Positions 6,222-7,429 of a stretch of 64,000 nucleotides of DNA are shown piece after piece (the stretch's first letter is position 1; each line of letters opens with the position of its first letter). The stretch is taken from the sequence record PZ476263.1; one strand, written 5' to 3'. Below the pieces are notes generated by a model. The model did not search any database, was not told where the DNA came from, and saw only the letters and a program-made list of their open reading frames with translations. Both the position numbers and the translations under genes were made by a program. Source of the stretch: a phage.

Positions 6222-7429
6222 TTAGTACCAAGGCATACTAGCCATAAGACGCATAGGGGTGATGCTGGACCCGCCATCAGGGAGTGTCCAACCGACGCCG
6301 CCTGTTGTTCTACCCCCTGCGGCAAACAATTGATAATCTTCAGTTAAGATAAAGGATCGTACATAGTCTTTAGCTACCCCAATAACCTTTTTATCTCCGA
6401 AGGTTGCAGGTTTGTACATATCTACATAGTTATACACTGATGTATAACTCACACCATCGCCTACTTGCCCTGATCCGTTCTCACCACCGTTCTTAATCGT
6501 ATTTCTACCAAAGCAAATTATTGGTGCTCCAGTTGCATCCCCTGTTTGAATACCAGAAGGATAGATAAGTCCATCTTCTAAAGGCAATGCACCACTAAGG
6601 GCATCGTTTTTTATTGGTGTCAGTACCGTACCCGCGTTGTTAAATGAACCTGTTCCCGCAGAACCTTGAGTATTCAAACCGCTCCAATACACATCGCCAT
6701 TGCTTTTTATTCTCCAAGTACAGACGGTAGCCACAACTATATTTCTAACGTCGGTTGTTATCAGTGTTGGAGTTTGCAAGTGGTTGTTAAGTGCACCCCT
6801 TCCACTCTCACCGTAGGCATCGTAACCTGCAAAGAACTCTCTTCCATCAGCAGTTAGAAAGTGAGTTCCGAAAGCCCTGGTGGCCAGCTGAGCTATCTCG
6901 CCCATACTTGTAATTTGTACAAAGTTAGCAATCATCGCCCTTGTGCCGTTACCGCATTCACCGTTTGTATTACTACCGCAGCAAAATACCTTACCATCCT
7001 TTGTTAAAACCCTACAAGACCCGCTTCCCAGTGCCACTGTTTTTATATCATCGGGCGTAACTCCGATATTCGTAAAGTGCAAAGTCACTTCAGTAAAGGA
7101 TGTTACATTCCCCCCGCCAGTCCCTAAAGGGGGAATGCATTTCTGCTTCCTACGTAGAAGAATTTGTCGTCGTTGGTTGCAAGTAGTGTTCCATTCTGAC
7201 CTAACCAAAAATATTTACAATTTGAATAAATCTTTACAAAGTTAGGGACAGAGGACGTAACTCCATTTCCAAGTCGGTATTCAGGAGCGTTACCGTAACC
7301 ATAAAGATCTCCCGTAGGTTTGTGAAGGTACATGACCACAGATTGCTGCGCTTGGATATATTCTGGGAGTATTTCACTCGATGGTACGTCGCCACCTTTA
7401 GGTACACCTAAATTCATCATTTCCAACAT
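6222..7429 (-). CDS. RCC1-like repeat protein, paralog 3, reading frame broken near 7129-7133
   Basis: ORFs 7124..7429 (MLEMMNLGVPKGG...) and 6222..7208 (…GTGGGNVTSF… CCGSNTNGECGNGT) are the two halves of one paralog; one extra C in the minus-strand C5 run would fuse them (NAFPPLGTGGGN). Confidence 0.5.

Follow-up and report, generated by a model that had tools for sequence, protein, structure and literature searches.

The jumbo coliphages phAPEC6, PBECO4 and GAP32 (gp1) encode several diverged RCC1-like proteins per genome, with eleven copies, of no known function, in phAPEC6 (PMC7247149). The gene analysed here, which is split between two reading frames in a 64,000-nucleotide stretch of a phage genome (hereafter, the window; record PZ476263.1), belongs to the same family, and its repaired product shows 35–37% identity, over 96% of its length, to genes annotated as 'regulator of chromosome condensation' (tblastn). 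In the jumbo coliphages and in the window alike, each of these proteins appears to be a single propeller of ~380–400 amino acids (aa). However, unlike the jumbo coliphages, the window carries an array of three such genes (3–4 in its relatives), which lies among small, early-type genes in an rV5-like phage of ~140 kb. In another jumbo phage, Escherichia phage CMSTMSU (MH494197.1, 141088–141760), an RCC1-like homolog is broken into several short annotated coding sequences (CDSs), which, given that the record is labeled UNVERIFIED_ORG, suggests frameshifts that reflect assembly quality.

Single-base homopolymer frameshifts that turn one conserved gene into two overlapping open reading frames (ORFs) at a short G/C run are known from phage sequence records. 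Nothing substantive sets the split gene in the window apart from these cases, and here, an exact allele with six C residues (C6) from an independent assembly pins the event to the base. Like Escherichia coli dnaX and the phage tail-chaperone G/GT genes, the gene in the window would need a −1 shift for the two frames to be joined, and a tRNA in the P site could re-pair on C CCC. Unlike dnaX and G/GT, it has neither a tandem slippery heptamer nor a correctly spaced structure nor a conserved two-frame layout. As in the bacterial poly-G/C contingency loci, alleles that differ in the length of a G/C run switch the frame on or off, but the run in the window is far shorter (5–6 bases) and is not conserved; known G/C contingency tracts are usually at least 7–8 bases long. 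The lesion is best read as an ordinary event, either a very recent mutation or a base lost in base calling, that involves no special expression mechanism.

A split gene in a tandem array of RCC1-like genes

The window belongs to an rV5-like (Vequintavirinae-type) coliphage. Its nearest relatives in GenBank, the Vequintavirinae phages A5-4, A73, W70, A7_1, UPEC06 and LTH01, share 80–88% nucleotide identity with the window over only about one-quarter of the first 25 kb. The listing of ORFs includes two overlapping ones on the minus strand, 7124..7429 (101 aa) and 6222..7208 (328 aa), which a preliminary description of this DNA had taken to be the halves of a single RCC1-like paralog. This interpretation is correct. 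Read on the minus strand from 7429 towards 6222, the sequence starts with ATG TTG GAA ATG ATG AAT and runs on to GCA TTC CCC CTT TAG; insertion of one C yields a 1209-nt ORF of 402 codons, reading ...SRNAFPPLGTGGGNVTSF... (FFYVGSRNAFPPLGTGGGNVTSFTEV). The two ORFs are one 402-codon gene, the third of three tandem RCC1-like genes.

The 5′ piece of this gene (7124..7429, minus strand; 101 codons, frame A) starts at an ATG at 7429 with GGAG just ahead, encodes the N-terminal sequence MLEMMNLG, which is also found in both paralogs, matches PHROG 4219 at 1e-17 and ends at a premature TAG (7126..7124). The 3′ piece (6222..7130, minus strand; ~302 codons) is in the −1 frame; it begins with CCT (7130..7128), TTA and GGG and is open all through to the stop codon at 6224..6222. 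The two frames meet, as the same description had it, at a run of five C residues (C5) on the coding strand (GGGGG on the plus strand; 7129..7133, minus strand), the site of the missing base in the Phe-Pro-Pro codons TTC CC[C] CCT. A G6 run (CCCCCC on the plus strand, 7110–7115) follows 13 nt downstream. When the DNA was aligned to the intact orthologs, the window showed a single 1-nt gap, confined to the two Pro codons. The break sits inside the invariant motif NAFPPLGTGGGNV, and the peptide that spans the junction in the repaired protein is NAFPPLGTGGGNVTSF; the motif YFSGTGGNVTTW, quoted previously from the paralogs, is present in the 380-aa paralog (5065..3923).

The other two genes of the array, also on the minus strand, are intact. 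The second paralog (5075..6208; 377 aa) is 97% identical at the amino acid level to A5-4_120, and the exact protein is present on a contig from the Logan assemblies (L015); the first (3923..5065; 380 aa) is 97% identical to A5-4_119. All three proteins start with MLEM(M/L)NL, the true start of each gene is preceded by GGAG or AGGAG, and each of the three gives matches to RCC1 repeat models as well as to PHROG 4219 ('regulator of chromosome condensation'). The amino acid identity among the three is 26–34%, and each has separate conserved orthologs. The array as a whole (3923–7429) is mosaic and variable compared with A5-4 and with contigs L003, L007, L018 and L020: the relatives carry 3 or 4 RCC1-like paralogs in differing order, and the first two paralogs of the window show 97% amino acid identity to those of A5-4, with dS of 0.05–0.18, whereas the split gene is only 86% identical to its A5-4 counterpart, with dS of 1.6, and is closest to L003 and L021.

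Once repaired, the protein exceeds the cut-offs of the Pfam domains RCC1 (PF00415; 35.7 bits, cut-off 21.7) and RCC1_2 (PF13540; 27.2 bits, cut-off 22), reaches 90 bits with RLD (PF25390), under the whole-domain cut-off of 150, and matches PHROG 4219 at 1e-53. For structural comparison, the AlphaFold2 model of a 94%-identical ortholog, P0001, stands in for the repaired protein; the mean pLDDT of this model is 65, with good values for residues 30–260 and poor ones for residues 274–344, within the C-terminal third. A Foldseek search of the PDB with the P0001 model retrieved UVR8, RPGR, the HERC2 RLD and RCC1 as the top matches (E-values of 1e-15 to 1e-21), which span ~385–400 columns, that is, the full length of the model, at a sequence identity to RCC1 of only ~15–20%; the low confidence of the model in its C-terminal third calls for caution here. 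The RCC1-like identity proposed in the preliminary description is thus confirmed by Pfam (RCC1 and RCC1_2), PHROG 4219 and Foldseek, and the repaired 402-residue protein is predicted to be a single-domain, seven-bladed RCC1-like β-propeller.

Elsewhere in the window, a tRNA cluster on the plus strand (50967–52824) contains tRNAs for Met, Tyr, Gly(UCC), Gln and Pro(UGG) identified with ARAGORN, along with a sixth, weaker tRNA detected with Rfam (50967–51045), and beyond this cluster lies a group I catalytic intron (Rfam RF00028, 78.7 bits, cut-off 50; 54986–55290, plus strand). At the other end of the window, the region from ~250 to ~2100 shares conserved DNA sequence with the 90.2–92.1 kb segment of A5-4, with similarity that shifts between frames and strands. 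The A5-4 counterpart contains few annotated genes, a search of ~250–2100 for Rfam families gave no match, and this region may be non-coding or indel-rich.

Intact orthologs and a natural C6 allele

In the six GenBank relatives, the ortholog of the split gene is one 399-aa CDS that aligns unbroken over 100% of the repaired protein. On the metagenomic contigs L003–L007 and L016–L018, the ortholog is likewise in one piece along the repaired protein; in L020 and L021, the end of the contig cuts the gene downstream of the lesion site, and both are in frame across the site. Altogether, at least 16 orthologous sequences from these phages and contigs are in frame at the position of the lesion. Moreover, the 402-aa protein P0021, encoded on another Logan contig, is intact and differs from the repaired protein at 2 residues.

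The most informative of these sequences is L021 (Logan contig SRR18573369_5277; L015 comes from the same sample), which reads GCATTCCCCCCTTTAGGG (TTC CCC CCT TTA), that is, contains the C6 run. L021 is 98.7% identical to the window across 15146..6324 and, along the 1,107 bases of the gene present on the contig, is identical at the nucleotide level except for the one C; after addition of one C to the window gene, there are no codon differences across the 369 codons covered. Across 2.4 kb (window 7912..5502), C5 versus C6 is the sole difference between the window and L021 together with L015. The proposal that a C6 run restores the gene is therefore borne out by a natural allele in the L021 assembly.

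Only two other indels separate the window from L021 in 8.8 kb. One is an intergenic poly-A tract, A10 in the window and A6 in L021, at 14628–14637 (minus-strand A10, read as T10 on the plus strand), which immediately precedes a GAGGA ribosome-binding site; the tract ahead of GAGGA contains 10 A residues in the window, 6 in both L021 and L016, and 5 in L018, and such variation in spacer length could alter the Shine-Dalgarno context or expression. The other is a 12-nt tandem duplication (8127–8138) in the ORF 7933..8238 (minus strand), TTTTGAATAGAT, which is in frame, yields NRFLNRFL in the protein and is absent from L021.

In all other orthologs, the homopolymer is broken, with CCACCA, CCGCCA, CCACCC, CCGCCC or CCACCT at this position, most of the relatives having CCACCA or CCGCCA. 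From the first eight orthologs, which read CC[A/G] CCN, the lost base could have been taken for the A of an ancestral CCA; this possibility was ruled out by the CCC CCT of the L021 lineage. Because L021 shows CCC CCT in the window's own lineage, the lesion would be a true contraction from C6 to C5. No second assembly with the C5 allele was found, and no record exists of the 101-aa, 328-aa or 237-aa product. A scan of IMG/VR for the exact junction pattern returned no match, the same scan of the JGI metagenomes returned only three chance matches, all unrelated, and a search of viral contigs for related loci found no relative.

Predicted fate of the C5 allele

Because one C is lost, translation would end after 101 residues, which, judging from the P0001 model and the Foldseek alignments, make up less than two of the seven blades. 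Since the propeller spans the full length of the protein, truncation at residue 101 is expected to destroy it. In the vicinity of the break, no start codon with a Shine-Dalgarno sequence was found for the 3′ piece, and translation restart was rejected. As written, the C5 allele is a predicted null.

The sequence on both sides of the break bears no mark of decay. Compared with L003 (94% amino acid identity, dS of 0.33–0.79), the part upstream of the break has a dN/dS of 0.053 and the part downstream one of 0.049; more distant orthologs give similar values, and the ~300 codons past the break contain no further stop codon or indel. An old, decaying pseudogene within a redundant paralog family might be suspected given that the gene has two paralogs in tandem with it and that relatives vary in copy number. 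Decayed pseudogenes, however, are recognized by multiple lesions and relaxed constraint, whereas here there is one lesion, with ω of 0.05 on both sides and ~300 open codons downstream; furthermore, the paralogs, with 26–34% amino acid identity and conserved orthologs of their own, are not obviously redundant. Because there is no further stop codon or indel and the gene is otherwise 100% identical to the intact C6 allele, an old pseudogene can be excluded for practical purposes. From these comparisons, the loss of the base would be either evolutionarily instantaneous or not real.

The C5 run is part of an imperfect, GC-rich inverted repeat that can fold into a hairpin (7104..7139, minus strand; arms CATTCCCCC and GGGGGGAATG), with the C5 run in the 5′ arm and the G6 run in the 3′ arm. 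The calculated ΔG is −20.5 kcal/mol for a 45-nt segment, −24.0 kcal/mol with C6, and −14 to −16 kcal/mol for the orthologs. The wobble positions of Pro1 and Gly2 can pair in 4 of the 9 distinct ortholog sequences, and those of Phe and Gly3 in 2 of the 9; accordingly, conservation of the hairpin through compensatory wobble changes was rejected, and the complementarity appears to be a by-product of the CCN and GGN codons. This hairpin is the only strong local structure: no stimulatory hairpin or pseudoknot was found 5–9 nt downstream of the shift site, and the hairpin itself cannot be a downstream stimulator because the C run lies in its own 5′ arm. We also considered a prfB-like +1 shift at CTT TAG and rejected it, because it would enter the wrong frame and soon meet a stop codon.

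Both remaining ways in which the C5 allele could be functional had been suggested in the preliminary description, and neither is now supported. Under one, recoding, the C5 template would still give the full-length protein, either by a −1 slip of tRNA-Pro or through a C added by RNA polymerase. If tRNA-Pro moved back one base, from C2C3C4 to C1C2C3, it would re-pair perfectly and yield F-P-P-L-G exactly; the 0-frame stop codon lies two codons downstream, a GGAAG element is located 14 nt upstream, the phage encodes a tRNA-Pro(UGG) (52748–52824), and the downstream frame is entirely open. However, the 0-frame codons TTC CCC CTT TAG include no X XXY YYZ heptamer, with C CCC CTT failing at the A-site codon, and the shift site, instead of lying 5–9 nt upstream of a structure, is itself part of the hairpin's 5′ arm. 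Efficient transcriptional slippage occurs on A/T runs of 7–9 bases, and the C5 run is far shorter. Furthermore, a two-frame arrangement was found in none of the relatives, at least 16 of which are in frame at this site, L021 with its otherwise identical sequence among them, so that no lineage seems to have evolved to depend on shifting. We consider slippage-dependent expression to be highly improbable. Trace read-through is possible via a slip of tRNA-Pro on C CCC; any such read-through from C5 would be incidental and low-level, and nothing suggests selection for it. Under the other, phase variation, the C run would be a contingency tract, with the population toggling between C5 (off) and C6 (on), and indeed, both alleles, the C5 of the window and the C6 of L021, occur on an otherwise identical background. 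Yet, contingency loci are typified by a long, uninterrupted and conserved homopolymer, whereas here, the tract is merely 5–6 bases long, is interrupted in the relatives other than L021, most of which have CCACCA or CCGCCA, and has no equivalent at the corresponding position in either of the other two paralogs; a phase-variable mutation is accordingly very unlikely as well. Taken as a whole, the chance that C5 is real and either still allows production of some full-length propeller, by slippage or an added C, or forms a C5/C6 on/off switch of an accessory protein appears slim.

A recent deletion or a lost base call

The absence of decay, the isolation of the lesion and the lack of recoding signals together point to a non-programmed, evolutionarily instantaneous contraction from C6 to C5, leaving two of the causes listed in the preliminary description, a real inactivating mutation and a sequencing error, in contention. 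We put the chances that this is a real, very recent deletion in the sequenced phage stock at about half; on this reading, we infer that the base is missing from the phage DNA and not just from the assembly. The C6 run would have lost one C by slipped-strand deletion, with TTC CCC CCT becoming TTC CCC CT, at a short G/C homopolymer within a GC-rich quasi-palindrome in an accessory gene; translation would then stop after 101 residues, ahead of ~300 codons that have no start signal of their own, and the allele would be null. Also counted in favor of a real deletion is the state of flux of the RCC1-like family, with the number and order of paralogs varying among close relatives.

A sequencing or assembly artefact, in which the phage has C6 like L021 and one C was dropped in base calling or consensus generation, is a serious contender, to which we assign a somewhat less than even chance. 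A one-base homopolymer contraction is a classic base-calling or assembly error, and on several platforms, errors are frequent at homopolymers and in GC-rich hairpins; the local hairpin has a ΔG between −20.5 and −24 kcal/mol. Apart from the missing C, nothing in the gene or in the 2.4 kb compared separates the window from the C6 allele, and the gene is under strong constraint (ω of 0.05), with at least 16 relatives keeping it intact; these observations fit an artefact just as well as a deletion. No second assembly with C5 turned up, and a fragmented RCC1-like gene is seen also in the low-quality CMSTMSU record. What speaks against an artefact is the quality of the rest of the window. We screened for split genes by searching the window with every A5-4 ORF of at least 50 aa (tblastn); the hits cover 56.7 kb, and across this portion comparable with A5-4, the RCC1-like gene is the only real gene that is split between frames. 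The window contains 32 G/C runs of at least 5 bases, 63 A/T runs of 6 and three A/T runs of 9–10, among several hundred homopolymers in all, some of them much longer than the C run. A single split gene despite this many runs indicates that homopolymers are not a general source of error in this assembly, which favors a real mutation. In addition, the other two indels that distinguish the window from L021, the 4-nt difference in the intergenic poly-A tract and the in-frame 12-nt duplication, are not typical ±1 errors. The screen flagged further splits, none of which represents a real gene: they involve ORFs that are antisense or lack annotation, tandem paralogs, or positions 300–2100, where coding is poor.

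The practical consequence is mainly one of annotation: rather than as two hypothetical proteins, the two ORFs should be entered as a single disrupted gene, to be repaired if the phage proves to have C6; the split gene has no bearing on open questions on recoding. If C5 is true, the phage carries a natural knock-out within the conserved, strongly constrained RCC1-like array of the rV5-like phages, and comparison with the C6 phage could show whether this gene is dispensable in culture.
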